Shown here: positions 18,830 to 53,665 of the stretch, piece after piece
How positions within the stretch are numbered: the first letter of the stretch is position 1
Layout of the letters: each line of letters opens with the position of its first letter
Assembly (NCBI GenBank): GCA_029717555.1
Contig: JAMDHS010000041.1
Span: 1 to 64,000 of the forward strand
From: Peribolospora baueri
Taxonomy: Eukaryota
Reading direction: 5' to 3'
Length of the DNA: 64,000 bases
The notes under the pieces: generated by a model
Databases searched by the model: none
What the model saw: the letters and a program-made list of their open reading frames with translations, nothing else
What the model was told of the DNA's origin: nothing
Position numbers and translations under genes: made by a program

Positions 18830-20310
18830 CGCACACGACGGTCGGCAACGGCGACGGCGACGGCGCTTGCCATCTCGCTGAGTGAACCTGGCCTCGTAGA
18901 ATCTTTCCGTCCATTTTTGTTTCTTTTGCCTTTGGCTTCACTGCTCTTCCCCTCGGCGTGCGTGCCTCGTCTCTTTCTCGATCTATATCTTCTCTCGGCT
19001 CGTCGCTGTCCTTACATCCTGGTAGTCGTTAACGAATGCAGGGGAACCCGCAACCCGTCGTAAGAACTAGGTTCCAGGAACGTCGTGCGGTGTGGTGTGG
19101 TCTGATCTGATCCGAAGGAGGCGCGCAAGTCATGCGCTGGGACATGCTTGCACGCCGTTTCCCGCGCATATCCCCCCCTCCGTGTCCCGACTATGCGCAG
19201 AGTACCTACACCAACCTACGTATGGAATGGAAGGTGGATGGACGGACGGACTGGTTCCGTGGTATGCCCCGGCAACGGGGGCCTGCCTGCGTGTGTGATG
19301 GATGCCCACTGCCCACAGACCATGGACTCGCGCGGCTGGGCTGGGCGGGACGCGTCGGGGGGTTATTATTATTCTCGCTGTCGCCGTCGCCGCCGTCGAC
19401 CCGATGATGTGCTGCTGCGGCGGCGACGAGCGCGGTGGCGGGCGTGGTGCCAAATTTTGGCGGCCACTCGGCCGTGTTTCTTCTTTCTACTCGTGTTATT
19501 TTATTTTATTTTATTTCTCTTTTCCCGCTTGTCTCGCTTTCATTCCTTCCTTCCCCTCCCTTTCTAGCCTCTTCAAGGCCTAGCCCAAGTCGAGTCGCTC
19601 ACGCGCGCCCGACTTTGACTGCGCACGAGGACGTTCACTAATCTATCGGCCGTCCGCCCTTTTCTTAAAGAACATTTTCCTTCTTTTCTTTTTTTGTCGC
19701 AATGTCAAGCACAGAGGCAGATGTTCCATCTCGGCAGCGTCAGTTGACTGACTGCAGCACGGATCGGCGCCGGCCAGATCGCCCTCGCCGTCGCCGTCGC
19801 CCTCTTTCCCCCTCAGCCCGCCCCGGCTTGCTGCGAATCGACGGTGCCTGCTGCCGCCTGCCTGCCTGCCTAGGCGCCTGCCTGGCTCGCCCTGCCCCTC
19901 CGCCTGCCGGCGAGGCTCGTCGCTATCATCCATCATCATCCATCCGTCGCCAAGCATATACACTCTCCTTTCCACTTCTCCACCATCACCTCCTCGCCCG
20001 AGCAAACCCCCTCCCTCCCCCGCCCTTCACGCTCTTTGCCTTCCCATACACGCTCTTTGCCCCCCACACGCCCTTGCTCTCTGCCATCCGCCTACACCGA
20101 CTATCCTACCCGCCAGCCAGGAAAGCAAGACCCATCCTCGCTCCCACCCACACTCGTCCTCCTCGGTGCCCGCCTTCTTTCGCGAACCAGAGCTAGACGC
20201 TCCCCTTCGCACCGACTTCCAACCCTCTTCGCGCCCCTCCACGGCCTCTCCCCCTCCCTTCCTCCCCGCCTGCCGCCCCCCAGTCGCGCCGTCCGCCCTC
20301 GCCCGCCGTC

Positions 20311-21723
20311 ATGCGCGCATTCGACGTGCTCACCGCCGCCGGCTCGGCGCTCGCCTTCTCCCTCGCCGTCGGCCTGCCCGCTTTCACCGGCCAGGCCTGC
20401 GCAACGTCGTCCGCGTCCGGCTGGAAGTCCCTCACCCCCATCCCCGGCTCCGATATCGTCCAGTGGCAGATCCTCTCCCCGGACGCCAAGGGCAAGGGCA
20501 AGAACGCGACGCTCACCACTTATGTCAACGCCAACTATACCAGGGAGAACATCAAGAGGGTCATCATTAACGTCCACGGAAAGGGTCGTGACGCGTTCAA
20601 CTATTGGAACCATACCAACGTCGCCCTCTCTATGGCCGCCCAGCAGACCAACAATTGGGTCGACCCCAACGCCGTACTCATCATCGCTCCTGATTTCTTG
20701 AACGGCCAGGACAAGGGTGCGTTCCCCTGGAACGCCACCGCTCCTAAGCACCAGCAGGCGTACACCCAGACGCTCATTTACAAGGGAAACTTGTGGGCCG
20801 ACGGCGATGTCAACGAGTACCCGTACACTTCCAGGGGCGTGTCCAGCTTCCAGGTGTATGACGAGTTCATCAAGCAGTTCAGCGACCCGACGCAGTGGCC
20901 CAACGTCAACACCATCGTCCTCGCCGGTCACTCTATGGGCGGCCAGTTCGTACAACGGTACGCCATGATCGGCGACGCCGCCATGAGTCCCAACACCAAG
21001 GCCTCCCTCCGTTTCATCGTCGCCAACGCCGGCTCGTACCTCTACCCGGATGAGAAGCGGCCGTTGGACGTGAGCAACTGCTCGGACTACAACCTCTACA
21101 AGTACGGCTTCAATAACTACAGCATCATCTACGGCGCCGACAAAGCCACCGACCCTCAGAACCTCTTCCAGAGGTACATCACCCGCAACATGCACTACAT
21201 GTACGGTCTCCTCGACTTTGGCCCCGGTGACCTGCGTTGTGGAGCCATGGTCCAGGGCCACTACCACCTTGAGCGTGGCGAGTACTTTATGCAGTTCCTC
21301 AACGCCCTCCCCGGCGGCTTCCCTAAGAACTCTACCATCGACTACGTCCCCAACGCGAGCCACGACGACTTTGAGATGTTCAGCAGCCAGTACGGATTGC
21401 AGAGGATGTTCTACGACAACTACGAGGGCGACGGCCAGATTCAAGAGTCCAACGCGCCCGCCGGTGTCGACAACGGCATTAACAATGGCACGGCCAACTG
21501 GTATAGCGGCGCCGGCGGCGCTCCCACCGCCACGCTCGCCCCCAGCACGGCGTCCAAGCTGGCCAAGAACGAGGCCGTGAGCTCGTCTCGCGCCGCCGCT
21601 TCCGCTTCCTCCTTGGCCAAGCACAAGAAGTCCAAGAACGGTGCAGTGTCCGGCAAGACCGGTGCCGCTGTGGCTGCCGTCGTGGGACTCGTTGGCGCCG
21701 GTATCGCCGTCGTCGTCGCCTGA
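20311..21723 (+). CDS. Secreted alpha/beta-hydrolase with C-terminal hydrophobic anchor (GPI or TM), intronless
   Basis: 470-aa ORF with a signal peptide, VIINVHG, nucleophile elbow AGHSMGGQ, FIVANAGSYLY, C-terminal His (VPNASHD), a Ser/Ala linker and a hydrophobic tail. Strong C-ending codon bias. Confidence 0.88.
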   Translation: MRAFDVLTAAGSALAFSLAVGLPAFTGQACATSSASGWKSLTPIPGSDIVQWQILSPDAKGKGKNATLTTYVNANYTRENIKRVIINVHGKGRDAFNYWNHTNVALSMAAQQTNNWVDPNAVLIIAPDFLNGQDKGAFPWNATAPKHQQAYTQTLIYKGNLWADGDVNEYPYTSRGVSSFQVYDEFIKQFSDPTQWPNVNTIVLAGHSMGGQFVQRYAMIGDAAMSPNTKASLRFIVANAGSYLYPDEKRPLDVSNCSDYNLYKYGFNNYSIIYGADKATDPQNLFQRYITRNMHYMYGLLDFGPGDLRCGAMVQGHYHLERGEYFMQFLNALPGGFPKNSTIDYVPNASHDDFEMFSSQYGLQRMFYDNYEGDGQIQESNAPAGVDNGINNGTANWYSGAGGAPTATLAPSTASKLAKNEAVSSSRAAASASSLAKHKKSKNGAVSGKTGAAVAAVVGLVGAGIAVVVA

Positions 21724-22018
21724 GCTGGCACTCGTCCTCTCCGTTCATCGTCGGTCTGGTGCGGTGACAACAACTGTTGCTGTTTCCCATCTCCTTCTGC
21801 ATGTTTCCTACCCCGGTCCCCACTTCACCCCTCCCTACTGGCTCCTCGGGCGCTCGCTTGGACGTTCAGGCTCGCTTACGTACTCGTATTAGGATCTGCT
21901 TTTTCGCCCCGCTTATTTTTTTCGTTATTTCCTTCCTCTCGCTCACTGCCCGACATATATCTTAGGGCCTTTGTCTTCTTTCCTCCTTCTCCTCGGCCCT
22001 CACCCTGTTCGTTTGCTT

Positions 22019-44524: not shown

Positions 44525-45026
44525 GCGGGACCGTTGGCCGTTGGTGTTTCACTGGATATTGGACTAGCAGAACGATGCGGCCGCCCGGGCTGGACATCGT
44601 CATGATGCACCTCCCAAAGCGATCGTCCTCTTCTTTCTCGCTTGCTCCCCCCTCTGGCTGATGTATATTACGATTTCGATGAACAAACGGAATGGAATGG
44701 ACGGTGGCGTCAATACGATAACCACTCTAGGTTTGAGCTCTTGTCTACTTTTCTGTTGCAATGGTAACGGGGTGACGGGGAAGGAGCGAGAGTCGCTCAA
44801 GTTCGAGTGGGAAAGGAAGCGAGAGTCGATCAAGTTCGAGCGGGAAAGGAGAAGAGAGAGAAAAAGAGAAGGGACGTCGACGGGAAAGAGACAGCAGGGA
44901 AGCAGACCAAAGAAAAACCTATACAATCCATACTCAAGCAGCACCTACGCGAAAGCGAGCCGACCTCCCTCACCACTACCTCTCCCCTTTGCTGGGCCAG
45001 CACTCCCACCGTCTGGCCGGTCACCT

Positions 45027-46061
45027 TCACCTTGTCGCCGCCTTCACGACATCATCCCCTGCCACTTTCCCATGAGCTTCCGGGTTCCAGGCCCACCTCC
45101 TCGACCTTCCTCTACGCGCATCCTGCAAAGCCGAAGACGCCGTCTGGCCCTTGTCTGCTCCGCTCCTGCCCTCGACACCACCACTGGGAACGACGGCGCT
45201 CCTCTGCTGCCTCTGGCTTTGGCGTTGCCAGAAGAACAGCGAGCTGGAGCGCGGAATGCTCGGGGTGCAAGTAGACGATGCAGTAGACGAGGCTGCTGCG
45301 CTAGCCGTCATGGCAGGGGAAGGCGGAGGAGTGAAGGAGAACGGAGGAGGAGAGATGGGCGAGGGGGCCCGATGGAGAGAGGCCGGAGGAACAGGGCGAG
45401 GGAAAGACTTGGGAGTTGGTGCCCCAGGGAGAGCATTCAAAGTCAACCAATCCTGGTCCAAGTCAATCGCCATCGCCGAATCATTCGAGGCGGAGCCTTG
45501 TCGCGACTTGGAGAGGACGGTCGAGCGGGTCGAGCGACGGAGAGCACCGGAGCGCTCAAGGGTACAGTCGCTTCGGTGGTGGCTGACCGCCTTGGAAATG
45601 CCCACCGTGCTCCGGGATGTGCCTCGGTCGATGGCGTCGTCATACGGACCCCAGGCCTCAGAGCAGACCTCAGAGCACCACTGGGTCCAGGTCCCGAAGA
45701 TCTCTTGCTCGTCCTCCTCGAGGGTGGAGACTAGTCCGCTGTCAGCCACGAACTGGTTCCCGTGGACCCAAGTTTGAACGTGGACCTTGCGCCTAGGGGT
45801 CTGTCGGACGAGCACCACCTCCCTGGCGCGCAAGGAGTGGTTGCGGGACCTACCGCTGCTCCGCGAGGAGGTGCTACGCTGGGTGGTGGTGCTACGCTGA
45901 GAGGCAACGCTGCGACGCGAAGCGGAGCTGCCACGACGTATGAGACTAGTGATAGAGGTTTGGAGAAGAGAGTCCCTACGGGCCTGCTCGAGGGCGTCTT
46001 CGACGATCTTTAGATGCGACCGAATGTTGATGTGGGACATGTCGAGGGTCGAGACGGGCAT
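45027..46061 (-). CDS. Hypothetical Ser/Arg-rich protein
   Basis: Single long ORF from MPVSTLDMSHINIRSHLKIVEDALEQARRDS. Contains a structured-looking segment (EVVLVRQT..VHVQTWVHG...EIFGTWTQWCSEVC) within low-complexity flanks. No family recognised. Confidence 0.55.
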   Translation of the reverse strand: MPVSTLDMSHINIRSHLKIVEDALEQARRDSLLQTSITSLIRRGSSASRRSVASQRSTTTQRSTSSRSSGRSRNHSLRAREVVLVRQTPRRKVHVQTWVHGNQFVADSGLVSTLEEDEQEIFGTWTQWCSEVCSEAWGPYDDAIDRGTSRSTVGISKAVSHHRSDCTLERSGALRRSTRSTVLSKSRQGSASNDSAMAIDLDQDWLTLNALPGAPTPKSFPRPVPPASLHRAPSPISPPPFSFTPPPSPAMTASAAASSTASSTCTPSIPRSSSLFFWQRQSQRQQRSAVVPSGGVEGRSGADKGQTASSALQDARRGRSRRWAWNPEAHGKVAGDDVVKAATR

Positions 46062-46750
46062 GTTTTGAGAACGGAAAGTCGGATCAATACGCGAGAAGAA
46101 AGGGAGTGAGCGAGCGAGGTTGCTTAGGTGTGAGAAAGATGGTGAGAGGGAAGAACGGAGATCAACAACGAGCCCGCCCGACAAGCCCGTCTTTTAAGCT
46201 GTCGGACGGCGAGCGCGGCCCCTGTTATTCGAGACAATCGTGAGAGGACCTTCTATCTTGAGGGTGCAATAACAAACTGACAGACGAGGTGTGTCCAGAA
46301 GCGTCAGTTAGTTGCCAAAACAAAGCGTAGCTCAGCGCGCGAGATGTGTCCGCTTCCATGTCGAATGTTGGAGCGATGTCGACTGTTCCGAATTGAGTAG
46401 CGCTCTTATACTGTCCTCGTTATCGGCTTCAGCGGTCGTTGAGTGAGCCTCTCGCAAAGTGGAGCGGTTCAGTAGAGTCTTGCGAGCTGTAGTCGTGATG
46501 AAAGCGTAAAGGAAGCCGTCGGATGCATTGTCGTCGCGATGATGGCCTTGCCGGTTCCGGCGGAGTGGCCCGTGCGCGATTCGCATTCGCCATCCTCCTC
46601 TCCGTATCTCCAGACCAGCATGTGCAAAACTGGTGAGACCCCGCCTTAGTTTTAGCCGCCCCCTTATTTGGGCAGCTTGGGACTTGGAATTGAACCAGCC
46701 GTTCCTACGCACTGCCTGAGCCGTCGCCTGGGAGCTACAGACACCCCCGC

Positions 46751-47830
46751 TTGTCCAGGACCGTCAAATTGGACCTTCCAAAGAGAAACGAGGTGAGGGC
46801 CAAGGTGACCTACACCGTAAACTGCGACAGAGAGACCCTTCTTTTAGCCACTGCGGACGGGATCCTGAGGACGCCTTTCCTTGTTTGCATACCGGGTGAA
46901 AAGCTGCTCCCGCCGACATTAATTTCCCCGATAATGACTGAATCCAATGTCGACACGGACGTCTCTGCTTCTCGCAGGTCGCGAAGGCGCCAGAGTCGTG
47001 AGTCGCCTTTGACAGCGCGCCCCATTCGGTCTGAATCTGCGGGTGAAGATGCCAAGCGACTTTGGCACCTTGCTTTACACTGCGGAACGTAGGGAGTGCA
47101 CGGTGACGCCTCTCGCCTCTGAGCCCGATGAAGGATGTACACGACGTCCAAGCGCGGGCGGAACGAAGAAGAAGAAGAAAATCAGCAGCGATGTCCCTAG
47201 CCAAAGAACACATATCACGCTGTGTCCCGTGACCTATCCTATCTTTGGCGTTGGTTCGCACCGCTGTGATCCTATACGACCCATCCTCCTCATCCAGCCT
47301 CCCGCCAGGCAAGGCCGTCTGTCCCGGGTGCGAACGAACGTGCAAAGCACGCCCCCAGTACCCGCCATGTGTACGACCGCCCCGTATCGGGGCGCAGGTG
47401 GAGCTCCTCTTCTCCGCCCACTTCAGCCTCATTTCCTTCCTCACCTCAGACACGCCTCCCAGAACGCTACTGGCCTTTGTTCAGGCACCCCAGGCTGTCT
47501 GTCCACCCTACCAGATTGCCTCATCACTCATTACTCCAGTGCACATCTCCAAGCCGCTCACGTACACAACGATGGGACAGAGACTCCTCCGGGACATGCC
47601 TGATGATCCCAGTCTCGGTCTCGTGCAATGTACGCCAGGTGAGGGCCTTGTCATGTGCCTTGCCAACTTCGGGGACAACTATGAGGACGCAATCATCGTC
47701 TCGCAGGCAGCAATCGACAGGGGCCTCTTCTTGTATACATCGAGGAGCATTCACATCTTGACAAAGAGCGAACCGTGCCCCGAGGTAGGAGGGAGAATGC
47801 GAATGTCCGAGCATCCATGGTGGAAGTGCT
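46751..47830 (+). pseudogene. Fragmented, highly divergent RNA polymerase second-largest (beta/Rpb2-like) subunit
   Basis: TLLLATADGILRTPFLV resembles the Rpb2 IFTDAGR..RPLFIV segment. LFSAHFSLISFLTSDTPPRTLLAFVQAPQAV...KPLTYT...PGEGLVMCLANFGDNYEDAIIVSQAAIDRGLF aligns colinearly with Rpb2 ILGV.[26 protein letters not shown]...KPL.TT...PAGQNAIVAI..Y.GYNQEDS.IMNQSSIDRGLF. Truncated and split across frames. Confidence 0.75.
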
Positions 47831-47990
47831 ATCCGCGGAGGAAAGGGCGAAGGTTTGTTCTTGAGAGAACAGTGGAGGGCGACCAAGGCCCCGTCATGCA
47901 CGAGTCTCGTGAGTCTAATGGGCCTGGGTTGTGTCGCATTGGTAGACATGGCGGCCAACAACACGGCGTTGTGGTGCCACTACATATGCA

Positions 47991-49075
47991 ATGCAGACAT
48001 TCGCAGAACTCGTCCTTAGTAATAAAGGTATTGAAACTCCGAGACCTGTGGAAGATAAGGATCACCTCATACCTGTAGAGGGTACTTATGGAGCCCCTGG
48101 GAAGTTCAGTCGCATTACCGACATTTACAAAGGGAAGGGAATGGTCGCCAAAATTCAAGGCACCGTAGTGATCTACCTGCCCAGTCATAATCACTGGGCT
48201 CCCCTTTGCTCTCCAGAGGCCCAGGTAACAGTCTGCTCCGTTGTAGAGGCAGACAATGCTACGGTGAACTGCCTGACTGCGATGCGCCTCAACTCTTCGT
48301 TAATAGAGAGCTTTGCAATCCCGGTAGAAGTCATTCCACCTAGCGTGTGCATCTCAAATACGAGGCTAAGAGTCTCGCTCGACGGAGACAGTGGCCTTAC
48401 AGCGAGGCAATGTCCGCCTCTCATTCACGCACCTACAGTGCTGTCACCCGAGGGAAAGGCGAGGGTAGAGTCCGTGTCTGTCATGCCGGTAAGAGCATCT
48501 AGCGTCCTCCCCCGGTGGAATGCGAAGACTAGCCCAGGTGTAGTCCTCCACTTTCTCAGCCGCTTGTTCCTGAGCGAATTCAGCTCGATACCGTACTGTG
48601 GGCGGTATGTAACTGCATACTAGACCCCGCGTCTCAGGCCCTGGTAATTCTCTACGGGCCAGGGGGTACAGGCAAGAGCACACTCATTAGATGCCTTCAA
48701 ATGGCTCTGGCGGGGGGTTCGTGTACTCTTCCCTCTAATGCGTTCACGAGAGCGTCGAAGACCCTAGGCAATGACGTCGCTCAAGCATTACCGTCTACAA
48801 GACTGGCCGTGTCTGGAGACGTGGAGCTTGGGGGCAATATCAACCTAGGGCTCATCAAGGCAGTTACTGGCAGGGACTCGGTGCCTATACCTCCATCGTC
48901 AGCTGCGATCAGTAGCACAGTGGTAATAGGCAGTAACTCGCTTCCCTTTAGGGTTGCAGTCAGGGACTGGTCTTCAGAGGTTATCGTAAGGCGGGCTGTA
49001 GTTGTACACATGAATGTGAACACTACGGCCCTCCCGCGCGTAGTGATGCCTGACAGGCCAGAGCATTGGCTAGAC
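47991..49075 (+). pseudogene. D5-like superfamily-3 helicase fragment, copy A (frameshift ~48570)
   Basis: After correcting a 1-nt deletion: FLSRLF....QLDTVLWAVCNCILDPASQALVILYGPGGTGKST (Walker A), RLAVSGD (Walker B position), IKAVTGRD (D5 K.LTGGD-like), VVIGSN (motif C), IVRRAVVVHM (Arg finger). Confidence 0.8.
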
Positions 49076-49985
49076 TAAGGTATATGAAGCATTGGCTAGA
49101 TATGAAAAGAGCCGGCGTTCACGTCCATGTGCACATCTATGGCTCGCCTCACGATTGCCTCTGATGACCAGTCTTCAACTACAATGCTGGAGGGAAGTGA
49201 GTTGCTACCTATCACCACCGAGCTACTGATTGTAGCGGATGATGGAGGTATTGGCACTGAGTCCCTGCCGGTAACTGCCTTGATAAGTCCCAGGTTCACA
49301 TTGACCCCCAAGTTCCACGTCTCCGGACACGGCTAGTCTTGTAGATGTTAATGCCTGAGCTACATCAACACCTAGGGCCTTCGGCGCTCTTGTAAACGCG
49401 TCAGAAGGGAGGGTGCACGAGCACCCCGCCAGAGCTGCCTGCAGGCGTCTGATAAGAGTGCTCTTACCTGTACCTCCTGGCCCGTAGAGGATGACCATAC
49501 GAACCTGAGATGCAGGGTCTAGTAGACAGTTGCCTACTGCCCATAGTACAGTGTCGAGCTGAGTCCTATCGGGGAACAGACGGCTGAGAAAGTGAGGACT
49601 ACACCTGGGCTAGTCCTTAAGTTCCACCGAGGGAGGATGCTAGATACTCTTACCGGCATGACAGACACGGACTCTACCCTCGCCTTTCCCTCGGGTGACA
49701 GCACTGTAGGTGCGTGAATGAGAGGCGGACATTGCCTCGCTGTAAGGCCACTGTCTCCGTCGAGCGAGACTCTTAGCCTCGTATTTGAGATGCACACGCT
49801 AGGTGGAATGACTTCTACCGGGATTGCAAAGCTCTCTATTAACGAAGAGTTGAGGCGCATCGCAGTCAGGCAGTTCACCGTAGCATTGTCTGCCTCTACA
49901 ACGGAGCAGACTGTTACCTGGGCCTCTGGAGAGCAAAGGGGAGCCCAGTGATTATGACTGGGCAGGTAGATCACTACGGTGCCTT
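48157..49985. repeat. Perfect 339-bp inverted repeat (48157-48495 vs 49647-49985) inside ~1-kb imperfect inverted arms
   Basis: Base-by-base comparison by eye shows no mismatch over the tract. The ORF track gives identical antisense peptides (48191-48424 and 49718-49951). Confidence 0.9.
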
Positions 49986-50118
49986 AGACCTTGGCTACCA
50001 TTCCCTTCCCTTTATAGATGCTGATACGGCTGAACTTCCCAGGGACTCCATAAGTGCCCTCCACAGGTGTAAGGTGGGCCTCATCCTCTACGAGTCTTGG
50101 GGTCTCACAGACACTGGG
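49107..50118 (-). pseudogene. D5-like superfamily-3 helicase fragment, copy B (inverted; stop at ~49985, frameshifts ~49595 and ~49303)
   Basis: MVILYGPGGTGKSTLIRRLQAAL...RLAVSGDVELG/NVNLGLIKAVTGRDS...VVIGSNSLP...AIVRRAIDVHM. Homologous to copy A in opposite orientation. Confidence 0.8.
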
Positions 50119-51132
50119 TGCCTTACCCTCGGGTGACAACACGGGTGGTCAACAAGACCCTGAGCTCCGTTGGCGCCGTCGGTCTCGGCGCGGTGGCCGA
50201 TGTGCTGGCCGCGGAGGAGCATATAGCGTCGGCGTCGCAGCGGCGGCGGTGGGATGTGTGGGCGCTTCGAAGAGCAAGACCAGAACGGCCGCTTGACGGT
50301 TTTTGGAGATGCTTCGTCAGGGGGGGGGACGGGGGGGGAAGAATTTCAGCAAGCGACTCCTACCCTGACTTCTCCCTTCAACTACCGCTCCACTCACTCG
50401 TTCCACCTCGATTTCGCCCGAAAGGCGGCGAGCCGTCGTATGTATCCTTGGCTCTCCGGAGTGAGCATCGACAACGCCTCGGCGGGGATGGCGGAGGGAA
50501 CTGCGTCCATGACGCTTTCCGGATCGAATGGCTGCGTCGTGAGCGCACAGCCGCGTGGTAGTGGCGACCTGCGACCGAGGTGGTAAGAGAAGGAGAGGAG
50601 ACCGAACGACGATGGCAAGCAGCCGACCGAGTCCCGACTCGTGTGTTCCTTACTCATCGCGTGAGCACATCACGTGGACGGCCATTTAACCGCTCTGCGC
50701 GCACGGGCCACCTCGAATGCATTGGTGCCGTGATTTCGACGGAAGTTGTTGGCCGCCATGCATTCGGACGGGCTGTGGACGACAGAGAACTGAAAGGTTG
50801 AGGTCAGGACGGCGAAGCGGTGACTCCGCTGGTTCCGAGGCGCGCCGGACGAGGCGGATATGGCAGGGTACGGCGTTCCCTGTCGTCAGCGCCCTTCAAA
50901 TACCGGCCCCGGTTCCTTTCCCATATAACATCTTTCTTGCTGGCAAGTAGACGGCCTGGACGACGGCTTTGAACCCATCCTAGAGGAAGCACGACGTGAG
51001 AGGCCTCTGTATCTTCTCGTGCCCTGACTTCCACCTCACTCTTCGAGACACAGGCCTCACTATTCTTTGACTGCTGGTCTGGCCGGCGACAGTGCGACTC
51101 GACATCACTTTTACAAGCCAAATTAAGACGTC

Positions 51133-53665
51133 ATGGATTGCACGGCAAAGGATCCCACCCCAAACGTTCCTTCCTCTGACTCAATGCACGTCAACCCCGC
51201 CTTCTTTACCGTGCCCTCTGACAAGCCATGTCCGCTGCCAAGGAAGAATGGCACGGAGAGTTACTGGCAGAGGACAAGCCCTGGAACCGAGTGCGGGATT
51301 GGCAGCGAGGACGCTCGTCACATCAAATGGCAGGGTCAAACAGTTGCGGAGATGGACGTCGATGTGGTTATTATTGGGTGCGTCGCGAGGCTCAATCGGT
51401 GACCGTTGGGAGAGGCAACGTGCGAAGCTATGCTGATCTTTCGTCTCTATGCGTGCTTCATCTTTCTTTTGATATTTTCTCATACGTCTGCTCGCACGCC
51501 ATCGATACGATCACAGCTCAGGCATCACTGGAACTTCAGCAGCCTACCACCTCTCTCGCAAGCTTTGTGCCACTGACAACGATGCTGCCAATGGACAAGG
51601 GCATATCAAGATCGGACGACAGCTCAACGTCGCTGTAGTCGAGGCAAGGGACTTCTGTGCGCTTTGTTGTTTCTCACCTCATCGGTTGCGCTTTGATGCT
51701 TTAGTGCAGCCGCCTATTTCCTATTCCTCGGCCTTAACAGAAACCTGACTATCGGTTTTTCTAACCTCAGGCTCTGGAGCGACAGGCCGGAATGGGGGCC
51801 ACATGACCCCCCTCTCGGCGTTGGCTTGGAACGACGTGATCTCCAAACCTCACTTGCTGGAACCCTTTGACGGTAGTCCAGCTCCCTCCCGTCCATCTTT
51901 GGCACATGCAGACATGCAGACACGGCAAAGTGGAAGAGCCGGGCCAGCGGACAATGCTAGTATGGCTGAAGCCAAGAGGATTTTTGCTCTGGAGCGGAGG
52001 ACCGAAGCGGTATTGTTGGCTCTGGCACAAAGTGATGGCCAACAAGGCCAGAGCGTAGATCTGACGCGTGGAGGCAATCTGCATCTTGTCCAGACCGATG
52101 AGGAGGAGGCAGAGTGGAAGAGCAGCTGGCAGGCTGCCAAGGAAGCTGGCTTGGAGGAAGGAGAGGGAGGCGGTATTGAATTGTGGGATAGGGAGAAGAC
52201 GGTTGAGGTGAACCTTTCCGCCTTCCATTGTGGAGGAATCAGCTGACCAAAATAGGCCGGGTCGTCGTTCCCATCGCACAGGCACTTTCCACTCGCTCTC
52301 CACATTTCCTTTCCGCCTTTCGCATCCCTGGTAACAATCTCCACCCTCTCAAACTCGTCCGCCTGCTTTGGTCCCGCGCTCTTGCGCTGACCACGTCCTC
52401 TGCAGGATCATCGACTCCGGCAGTTTCTCTCAAACTCTACATTCACACGCCGGTAACAGCAATCGAAGCGGTAGAGAAAGGTGATACGGTCCACAGCGAC
52501 CTCGACCGCCCGTGGCTCATCCGCACCGGTAGAGGACCGATATTTAAGACAAGCTATATCATCCATGCGACCAATGGCTATGTCAGTCACCTCGTACCCC
52601 ATCTCGCGGGCCCGCATGGTGTCATTCCGACGAGGGCACAAGTCCTCGCCGTCCGACCTGCGGTCTTGGCCGAAAGCAAGACGGAGTCGCGAGGAGTCTG
52701 GAAGGGCTGGAAGGGAGGGTTATATGTCAATCATGATTACGAGGTCAGGGTCGACCGCCACCGGTCCTTCTTCCACCTTGGGCTCTGTCAAGCATGATTG
52801 AACAATGTGGCTCGCCACCTCCTTTTGTCCAATGTTCTTCACACTTCCAGTACCTCTTCCCCCGCTCGCCTTCAGGTTCAGCATCTGTCACCACTGGCAT
52901 TCCGCCCATTATCTTCGGCGGCATGCGTGAAAGCGCATCACCTTCCTATGAATGGAATGTCACCGATGATTCGACTCTGAACCCTATCGTGGCCATCCGA
53001 CTTCGTACTTGGCTGGCGGATAGATGGCCAGAACAGTTTGGACGCCTCGGGCGGGGTACTGACAGCGCCAACGACGAGGAGGATGGTAGGGCTGTCAAAC
53101 TAGAGGAAGAAGCCGTGGAAATGGAGTGGACCGGGATTATGGGCTTCACGCAAGGACGGGATCCCATCGTGAGTAGGTTTGCAACGCCGTTACAGTTGTT
53201 TTAATCCAGTACTGTCTCGGAATCGATGTTCATTAGTAACCGACTTTGTGTTTTATATCTTCACAGGTCGGACCTCTGCCTCCCCCCACAGGGCAGAGCC
53301 CTCACTCGCTTGCTGGCCAATATGTGGCGGTAGGCTACAGCGGCCACGGCATGACTCGGGCATTCTCTTGGTAAATGGGTTTGCTTGCAGCGCTCAGGCA
53401 CCTATAGCAGAACCGAGTGACAACTTGCCTGACCTATTCTCATCTGGTCATTCGAACTACAAAACCACCTGTTCAGCGCCGAGGCGGTTGTCGACATGGT
53501 CTTGGCCGACATACGCGCGGAGAACTGGGAGATACCAGAATGGTGAGGACATCGAGCTTTGCAAGCCGGTAAGGAACGTGATTTGCTGAGCGGCAAGTCT
53601 CTCGCCGTCTCTGACGCGCGTTCCGCCGCAGGTTCCCGACCTGCTATCTTTCGACAGCCTGTTGA
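51133..53665 (+). CDS. FAD-dependent oxidoreductase (DAO family), paralogue 2, multi-exon
   Basis: DVVIIG/SGITGTSAAYHL, EARDF/CSGATGRNGGH, LHPLKLV, IIHATNGY, IPTRAQ, WTGIMGFTQGRDPI/VGP, VGYSGHGMTRAFS/AEAVV...W/FPTCYLSTAC*. Most intron positions shared with paralogue 1. Confidence 0.9.

Follow-up and report, generated by a model that had tools for sequence, protein, structure and literature searches.

An inverted pair of decayed D5-type helicase genes in a 2.8-kb foreign block within a host repeat of Peribolospora baueri: a probable endogenous virus-like element

How do two diverged variants of one gene come to lie tail-to-tail inside a single repeat of a eukaryotic genome? This question is raised by a stretch of 64,000 nucleotides from Peribolospora baueri (NCBI GenBank assembly GCA_029717555.1, contig JAMDHS010000041.1, positions 1 to 64,000 of the forward strand; hereafter the window), in which a short block of foreign DNA carries two inverted and disabled copies of a helicase gene, here called copies or arms A and B. 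We find that the two copies differ mostly at synonymous positions, as expected of genes that diverged while working, and that each of them was afterwards disabled by lesions of its own. We consider it probable that the block is an endogenous viral or virus-like element, namely a 2.8-kb foreign patchwork set in a host repeat, holding an Rpb2-like fragment and two dead, 3'-truncated helicases of the D5 type.

A preliminary description, made from the sequence alone, had presented the locus as two diverged helicase variants placed tail-to-tail, and this arrangement is confirmed by both a repeat search and a local alignment. The repeat search independently recovered four collinear inverted pairs, which join 48032-49021 to 49117-50107, and when 47900-49090 is locally aligned with 49060-50250 in reverse complement, positions 48032-49032 of A pair with 50107-49108 of B; the peptide pairs cited in that description reappear in the translations of both arms. 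When A is compared with the reverse complement of B, we observe 26 mismatches among 123 aligned bases to the left of a central tract (79% identity) and 103 among 534 to the right of it (81% identity), whereas the tract itself, the longest mismatch-free run between the arms, extends over 339 bases and is bounded by mismatches at 48156 and 48496. Since the arms are otherwise ~20% diverged, such a run is not due to chance. The inner ends of the two arms lie ~42 nt apart in gene coordinates, with B ending ~14 codons before A, and the centre of the palindrome contains a 13-nt direct repeat (AGCATTGGCTAGA, 49062-49074 and 49088-49100) and a 6-nt direct repeat (TATGAA, 49083-49088 and 49101-49106). 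The positions of all features are collected in Table 1.

Table 1. Features of the locus, of contig L013 (a metagenome contig with a full-length relative of the helicase) and of the contig of organism B (a second organism from the same study), the latter given by its placement on the window
Feature	Located on	Position	Strand	Remarks
Helicase copy A	window	47991-49078	+	ATG to TAA; one frameshift; last ~110 residues of the family absent; from open reading frames and family alignment
Helicase copy B	window	49096-50107	-	homology 50107-49108; starts ~14 codons into the gene; C-terminal part absent
Identical tract, arm A	window	48157-48495	+	339 bp; 0 mismatches against ~20% in both flanks
Identical tract partner, arm B	window	49647-49985	-	same 339 bp
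Central junction	window	49076-49107		filler between the two 3' ends, with short direct repeats
Whole foreign block	window	47348-50139		2,792 bp; present once in organism A; set within a multi-copy repeat of the host
Outer junction of arm B	window	50108-50139		copied filler
Rpb2 domain-6-like decayed fragment (putative)	window	47401-47760	+	supported core 47635-47733; upstream extension by eye only
Left host flank	window	44784-47347		multi-copy repeat; depth 400-1,900 against ~116 for single-copy DNA
Right host flank	window	50140-50750		same repeat class; depth 270-680 in bins 50180-50747
Organism B contig, piece 1	window	46602-46756		
Organism B contig, piece 2	window	48580-49075		40 differences in 496
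Organism B contig, between pieces 2 and 3				82 letters that do not lie straight on the centre of the window pair
Organism B contig, piece 3	window	49114-49952		58 differences in 839
Organism B contig, piece 4	window	48187-47944	opposite	31 differences in 244
Rpb1-like gene	L013	115-2103		PF00623, 7e-13
Family B DNA polymerase (PolB)	L013	7216-9408	-	4e-34
D5-type helicase	L013	9998-11335		full-length relative
PIF1 helicase	L013	13520-14905		1e-41

The pair is equally present in contigs assembled from reads, which were used for all four runs and from which copy number was judged; runs X1 and X2 represent organism A (0.93 of sampled words), and X3 and X4 represent organism B (0.09). In both X1 and X2 a 1,211-nt contig matches 48466-49676 letter for letter and without gaps, spanning the centre and covering the in-frame 3-nt indel at 49498-49500 together with the three inner frameshifts described below. 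Another contig, of exactly 339 nt, falls on the tract with a depth of 245 in X1 and 220 in X2, about twice that of single-copy DNA (116 and 91, respectively, in the flank 51884-53000), whereas the arms stand at the single-copy level (126 and 98). The tract is therefore present twice and each arm once, and because the depth of the arms equals that of single-copy DNA, no further helicase copy at a likeness of at least 80% was found in the genome of organism A, as judged from contig depth in X1 and X2. The contigs of these two runs rule out long-read homopolymer errors and fold-back chimeras.

The gene had been labelled a helicase, rightly, and we can assign it more narrowly to the D5-type helicases of superfamily 3 (SF3). 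The C-terminal piece of copy A matches PHROG 1156 (DNA primase, helicase part) at 1.9e-12, and a piece of copy A matches the Pfam family DUF5906 (PF19263) with an E-value of 8.1e-4 (20.5 bits, below the cut-off of 27.6). In the Atlas, 22 of 30 feature matches fall in the top family set, which carries DUF5906 only (best 0.97), and the remaining two sets displayed (7 matches and 1 match) also carry DUF5906. Upon examining the motifs, we find Walker A (GPGGTGKS) in both arms, at the near-invariant family columns G203-T211, and GDVE, VVIGSN and RR, which we take to be a Walker B-like motif, motif C and the arginine finger, in register with the near-invariant columns D276, N296 and R314-R315. An exhaustive search of 1.84 billion representatives returned 232 proteins at E ≤ 1e-3, 53 at ≤ 1e-10 and none at ≤ 1e-30, the best reaching 2.7e-28 with 39% identity; most of the top matches measure 430-460 amino acids and are matched at residues ~170-345. 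Ten family members are collinear with copy A from the ATG at 47991, over a family-specific N-terminal domain followed by the helicase core, and copy A stops at column 386 of the 502 in the alignment, with ~110 conserved C-terminal residues absent. A word-index protein search with the N-terminal half of copy A against longer proteins gave no match, which is weak evidence. Neither arm has the C-terminal ~110 residues of the family or an intact reading frame, and the window copies have no evident present helicase function.

Structural comparison was made with a model of the family member P0001, built on the family alignment (predicted local distance difference test, pLDDT, 84.6; predicted template modelling score, pTM, 0.85). 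Its best PDB matches are mpox E5, vaccinia D5 (323-785), the PrimPol of African swine fever virus (ASFV) and the SaPI5 primase-helicase, with E-values from 3e-8, and its matches in BFVD are D5-like primase-helicases of phages, giant viruses, virophages and ichnoviruses. As modelled, the family is a D5 helicase module, consisting of collar, AAA+ core and C-terminal domain, that lacks the primase.

Both copies acquired independent disabling lesions after diverging. One base is missing from copy A between 48569 and 48570, and the deletion is placed in A because B is collinear with the family through ...LFPDRTQLDTVLW... at this point. Copy B lacks one base at 49594/49595 (the partner of A 48548), a deletion placed in B because A runs unbroken from the N-terminal domain into ...HFLSRLF, and has an extra T at 49304, which is counted as an insertion in B because A has Walker A and motif C in one frame. 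Furthermore, B has the stop codon TAA (49986-49984) where A has CAA (48156-48158), directly adjoining the identical tract. These four lesions were already named in the preliminary description, and each of them is present in the arm alignment and translations. That the indels lie in short homopolymers, as it also stated, holds only in part: the deletion in A falls in a C run, the deletion in B falls in a CC pair, and the inserted T in B follows GGGGG. Its concern that they might vanish in accurate reads is not borne out, the three inner frameshifts (48569/70, 49304 and 49594/95) being unchanged in the contigs of X1 and X2. The arms also differ by two frame-keeping 3-nt indels, with 48113-48115 of A absent from B and 49498-49500 of B absent from A, and by a 2-nt gap within the poorly aligned last 16 columns of the alignment.

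Next, we consider when the two copies diverged. The codon alignment sets A against the reverse complement of B, with the extra base of B left out, codons with gaps or stops skipped and the identical tract excluded. Among the 211 codons thus compared, 66 differ synonymously only and 36 change the residue, and the differences at codon positions 1, 2 and 3 number 24, 17 and 84 (chi-square test, p-value = 7e-15). Nonsynonymous divergence (dN) is ~0.10 and synonymous divergence (dS) 0.75-1.0, with dN/dS at 0.110 by NG86, 0.100 by LWL85, 0.132 by YN00 and 0.141 by maximum likelihood, and at 0.09-0.14 when the flanks of the tract are taken apart (left 39 codons, right 172 codons), whereas a wrong-frame control on identical columns gave 1.58 and 2.05. 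Neutral simulations with the observed number and transition-to-transversion ratio of changes lead to an expectation of 76.8 ± 4.4 changed residues against the 36 observed, and 36 or fewer were reached in 0 of 5,000 runs. Stop codons provide a weak test of neutrality, since 2.25 are expected and the sole real one lies outside the counted set. The dominance of third positions indicates that the copies descend from two variants which diverged as working genes, and the data support the conclusion that most of the divergence between A and B arose while both were under purifying selection.

The composition of the changes agrees with this. Transitions account for 107 of the 129 mismatches between the arms, with all four directions equally common, and their excess is explained by synonymous change at two-fold sites, which gives transitions. 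When the C-bearing alleles are sorted by context (n = 106), 40 are CpA, 25 CpG, 23 CpC and 18 CpT, against background proportions of 0.25, 0.18, 0.27 and 0.31, respectively. The repeat-induced point mutation (RIP) index, (CpA+TpG)/(ApC+GpT), is 1.12 and indicates no depletion; a repeat mutated by RIP is contradicted by the codon positions, the lack of a dominant context and this index. The preliminary description had held that a dN/dS well below 1 outside the 339-bp tract would speak for divergence before integration and a purely C-to-T spectrum for duplication and decay after it; dN/dS proves to be 0.10-0.14, and the spectrum, with its four equal directions and no RIP context, is not of the latter kind. 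Both arms show signs of later decay. In 13 columns the arms differ while most family members agree on one residue, which is retained by A at 2, by B at 5 and by neither at 6, and an invariant glycine of the family is lost in copy A.

We then turn to how the pair is set in the host genome. Copies of the host repeat without the block were found in one contig each of X3 and X4, where the sequence runs straight from 47347 to 50140 with 2,792 letters skipped and 4 shared (joint depth 306 and 256, respectively), which is why we set the bounds of the foreign block at 47348-50139; another block-free copy, in X2, joins 47351 to 50236 with 7 letters between. The locus thus presents a foreign block bounded by host DNA along with block-free copies of the repeat, as is expected of an endogenous element. 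CACG is found at both block edges (47348-47351 and 50140-50143), and depth within the block is ~126, against 400-1,900 in the flanks (X1). At the outer junction of arm B, the stretch 50120-50142 repeats, on the same strand and at 21 of 23 positions, the stretch 49682-49704, which lies inside arm B ~440 nt away (0 of 300 shuffles reach this score). The copy runs into the CAC of the host-side CACG and looks like a templated insertion. Such a combination of microhomology and filler copied from nearby sequence is typical of end joining.

The left part of the block contains an Rpb2-like motif, …GDNYEDAIIVSQAAIDRGLF…, in a stretch that may derive from Rpb2 domain 6. It matches Pfam PF00562 with an E-value of 0.02 (14.5 bits, below the cut-off of 23.4); in a phmmer search of the PDB, 8 of 9 matches are Rpb2 or beta subunits at one motif (E 0.043-0.56); and in the Atlas 28 of 30 feature matches fall in Rpb2 domain-6 clusters (top 0.94), with a recognition score of 2106, below 2300. 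No match was obtained in a word-index protein search against longer proteins, which is weak evidence, and the next 76 codons gave no PDB match, the fragment ending long before the end of the domain. A candidate remnant with GDK...HGQKG at 47789-48016 was dropped, having no PDB match.

The host surroundings of the block are eukaryotic and fungus-like, with RGS+DEP, eIF-2B and exportin-T genes, and G+C content is 56-65% across the window, 54% in the element region and 53-54% in the helicase copies. A comparison of eIF-2B with the PDB returned no match by which the phylum of the host could be narrowed. By the run contigs, the multi-copy stretches extend over 44784-47339 and 50180-50750, with many contigs and many joints between variants, and the summed contig depth of the flank repeat is 3-15 times that of single-copy DNA. 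No Pfam family or transposon domain was found in the open reading frames of the flanks, and Rfam and tRNA scans of the window returned nothing. Two runs of 8 G each occur at 50313-50340 in the right flank, with small indels nearby in the run contigs (50327-50344). Elsewhere in the window, at 20101-21724, two open reading frames of 470-507 amino acids without a Pfam family overlap on opposite strands, and they are probably one real gene and a shadow frame in GC-rich DNA.

Organism B has its own version of the pair, on a single-copy contig that carries both arms (1,874 nt in X3 and 1,744 nt in X4). The tail-to-tail pair is there ~92-93% identical to that of the window, and the host flank 50621-53000 shows 57 differences in 2,380, an identity of 97.6%. 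Unlike in the window, the left arm is joined from host position 46756 to 48580; the right arm is A-like in its outer part and extends past the end of arm B of the window, and the centre differs as well. This right arm suggests an exchange between arms, or a third variant. If the two pairs are orthologous, ~7% of neutral divergence since the split would explain most of the observed dN, and selection before insertion would then have been stronger than a dN/dS of 0.1 implies.

The relatives of the helicase offer a view of the kind of element from which it may have come. The named family members are fungal, namely Blumeria hordei DH14 CCU82736.1 (460 amino acids, on a 669-kb contig) and Hirsutella minnesotensis HIM_11631, and the others are proteins from metagenomes and run assemblies (P0001-P0016 and P0159-P0194). 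A profile search gave 53 matches, with family members filling the top 40 places; in 13 clusters the longest contig measures 26-38 kb. A metagenome scan yielded 90 relatives, of which 77 loci were kept and 1 is full length, on the 32-kb contig L013; in tblastn, copy A matches the L013 helicase at 4.9e-46 and copy B at 2.7e-42. The segment 1-16111 of this contig contains 17 open reading frames of at least 120 amino acids in 16.1 kb, at 26-35% G+C, and 16 of the 17 were scanned, the omitted one overlapping another on the opposite strand. Besides the genes listed in Table 1, whose polymerase and helicase assignments were checked against the PDB, eleven other reading frames belong to no clear family, and no capsid gene was seen in this scanned half of the contig. 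AT-rich and densely coded, L013 has a virus-like appearance and may be a compact element with polymerases of its own. We call the source of the block a virus-like double-stranded DNA (dsDNA) element; a linear plasmid-like lifestyle is another candidate.

Searches for closer relatives gave narrower results. Of 33 stretches matched in IMG/VR, 12 were confirmed, and all 12 match the generic D5 core only (residues ~167-356, 26-36% identity); the collection thus gave no member of the family proper. When the L013 proteins were compared with the 64-kb window the helicase was the only match, and thus no further viral genes were detected there. Within the limited literature set searched, no publication was found that treats this family of helicases or a comparable pair.

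How, then, did the pair arise? In the reading we hold probable, that of an endogenous viral or virus-like element, two gene variants would have diverged by ~20% while each was working, and the block would have been assembled and inserted by end joining, as the 4-bp CACG microhomology at the host junctions and the copied filler at both internal junctions suggest. The 339-bp tract would represent a recent gene conversion between the inverted arms. Because two random breaks rarely fall within ~42 nt of one another in a genome of tens of kb, the tail-to-tail joint would have been guided by position, and three routes are candidates: a strand switch during a mixed infection may have led from one homologous template to another, a copy already resident may have been repaired with diverged DNA that came in later, or two genomes may have been joined end to end, after which the centre was lost by the symmetric deletions that palindromes typically undergo. 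Joining followed by erosion would fit the position of the L013 helicase, which points toward an end of its contig at a distance of 4.8 kb, although this proves nothing. The preliminary description had concluded that the variants diverged before integration and were co-inserted from one cell. The dN/dS evidence bears out divergence before inactivation, and co-insertion of two strains is plausible and consistent with the data, both arms lying in one 2,792-bp block that is absent from other repeat copies. Several points weigh against an endogenous viral origin as described. The near-coincident 3' cuts are unexpected for two independent fragments, and a position-guided joint is an extra assumption; the bounds in organism B differ, so a simple single insertion may not be the whole history; and no close exogenous relative of the source element was found in the collections searched (best 39% in the helicase core). 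These cuts within ~42 nt, the differing bounds and the lack of a close free-living relative leave room for other routes. In addition, the scores behind the putative Rpb2 assignment are weak, though concordant, and X1 and X2 may be the very sample underlying the assembly and not an independent isolate.

Among such other routes, the pair may have been captured sequentially, a dead variant already resident in the host being joined by a second, diverged one (from a later infection or another insert) through homology-guided repair, with the identical tract as its footprint. This is unlikely in our judgement. It accounts for both arms being cut near one gene position and for the sharp bounds of the tract, and the right arm of organism B, B-like inside and A-like outside the tract, is what arm exchange would give, whereas in the other repeat copies all 2,792 bp of the block are missing together, at a single microhomology of 4 bp, and organism A has no other helicase copy at a likeness of at least 80%, arm depth being single-copy. 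An origin inside the host, by fold-back duplication of one truncated copy with both products long kept as domesticated genes and only recently lost, appears improbable. Near-symmetric 3' ends would then need no coincidence, low dN/dS is compatible with selection inside the host, and copy A begins with an ATG while its stop codon falls precisely at the junction; yet arm B lacks a start and the first ~14 codons, and neither arm has the ~110 conserved C-terminal residues that correspond to the C-terminal part of D5 in the fold comparison, which makes domestication of such a pair unlikely. A dS of ~0.8 would also demand a very long upkeep of two copies followed by the loss of both, and the pair sits inside a repeat with filler at its junctions.

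The two remaining explanations receive hardly any probability from us. Duplication after insertion, followed by neutral or RIP-type decay, could draw on the 107 transitions in 129 mismatches and on a somewhat enriched CpA context (40 of 106 against 0.25), but third codon positions hold 84 of the 125 differences, the dN/dS of 0.11 in the true frame contrasts with 1.6-2.1 in the wrong ones, none of the 5,000 neutral simulations matches, and the RIP index of 1.12 indicates no depletion, so that we judge it extremely improbable. Palindromes are a known artefact of long-read assembly, and the X1 and X2 contigs may depend on the same sample as the assembly; an artefact, be it a chimeric fold-back or misjoined haplotypes, is nonetheless just as hard to credit, given that in two runs the centre is crossed by a contig built from reads and free of differences, that depth is double the single-copy value in the tract and equal to it in the arms, that the contig of organism B also has both arms around a centre, and that a fold-back would yield identical arms instead of arms 80% alike. 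Finally, a more specific and speculative proposal, to which we give a low probability, is that the block represents a copy-back hetero-dimer that became integrated, having arisen from a replication switch between two co-infecting, ~20%-diverged strains of undescribed small dsDNA elements that infect higher fungi; these elements (contigs to ~38 kb) would carry a multisubunit RNA polymerase, PolB and a primase-less D5 helicase. If that were true and the pair were transcribed, it would produce a hairpin RNA with a perfect 339-bp stem, which could feed RNA silencing against the cognate element.

As for the wider meaning, a preprint on endogenous dsDNA viral elements states that fungi have yielded no isolate of a Baltimore class I virus, and it reports dsDNA viral regions in only 153 fungal assemblies (0.89%) (10.1101/2025.04.19.649669). 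Returning to the probable reading of an endogenous virus-like element, the locus is a small endogenous fragment of an uncharacterised dsDNA element and alone changes no general view. Its moderate interest lies mainly in hints on the DNA elements of fungi: together with the Blumeria and Hirsutella genes and ~40 uncharacterised relatives, it points to a compact dsDNA-element lineage, encoding its own polymerases and a D5-type helicase, that met fungi more than once. It may also serve as a teaching case in paleovirology, in which one locus records selected divergence, end-joining capture, independent decay and recent gene conversion.

The locus may finally be set beside systems already known. Mosquito repeat loci hold patchwork viral insertions with rearranged or inverted fragments, sometimes of different variants, and copy-back or snap-back defective viral genomes are inverted dimers formed by strand switching. 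The block resembles these in its inverted, rearranged fragments within a repeat, whereas they mostly concern RNA viruses or unintegrated genomes. Arm-to-arm gene conversion is known from the palindromes of sex chromosomes, and genomic palindromes, like our locus, have inverted arms that are diverged except over a stretch of perfect identity with sharp limits; here, in contrast, the arms began as two variants and only 339 bp were homogenised. With poxvirus D5 and mpox E5, ASFV C962R (PrimPol) and the primase-helicases of phages and satellites, the family shares its Walker A, Walker B-like, motif C and RR finger columns, and the P0001 model matches D5-like structures over nearly its whole length (E of 3e-8 and weaker, template modelling scores of 0.4-0.57). 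It differs from D5, E5 and the ASFV protein in having only ~450 amino acids, no primase domain and 10-15% identity to solved structures, and the two window copies differ from D5-type helicases in being truncated pseudogenes. Compared with the ~450-residue family from Blumeria, Hirsutella and metagenomes, they are collinear from the first residue through the core, with 26-38% identity to P0001, whereas they lack the last ~110 residues and have 53-54% G+C against 26-35% in L013. The fossil replication and transcription genes of DNA viruses in a fungal-type genome recall the endogenous dsDNA-virus regions reported from zoosporic fungi (Mycodnaviridae, PMC13533422) and from Rhizophagus irregularis (1.5 Mb, PMC10640383); those giant-virus regions extend over tens of kb to Mb, in contrast to the 2.8 kb observed here and to relatives on contigs of at most ~38 kb.

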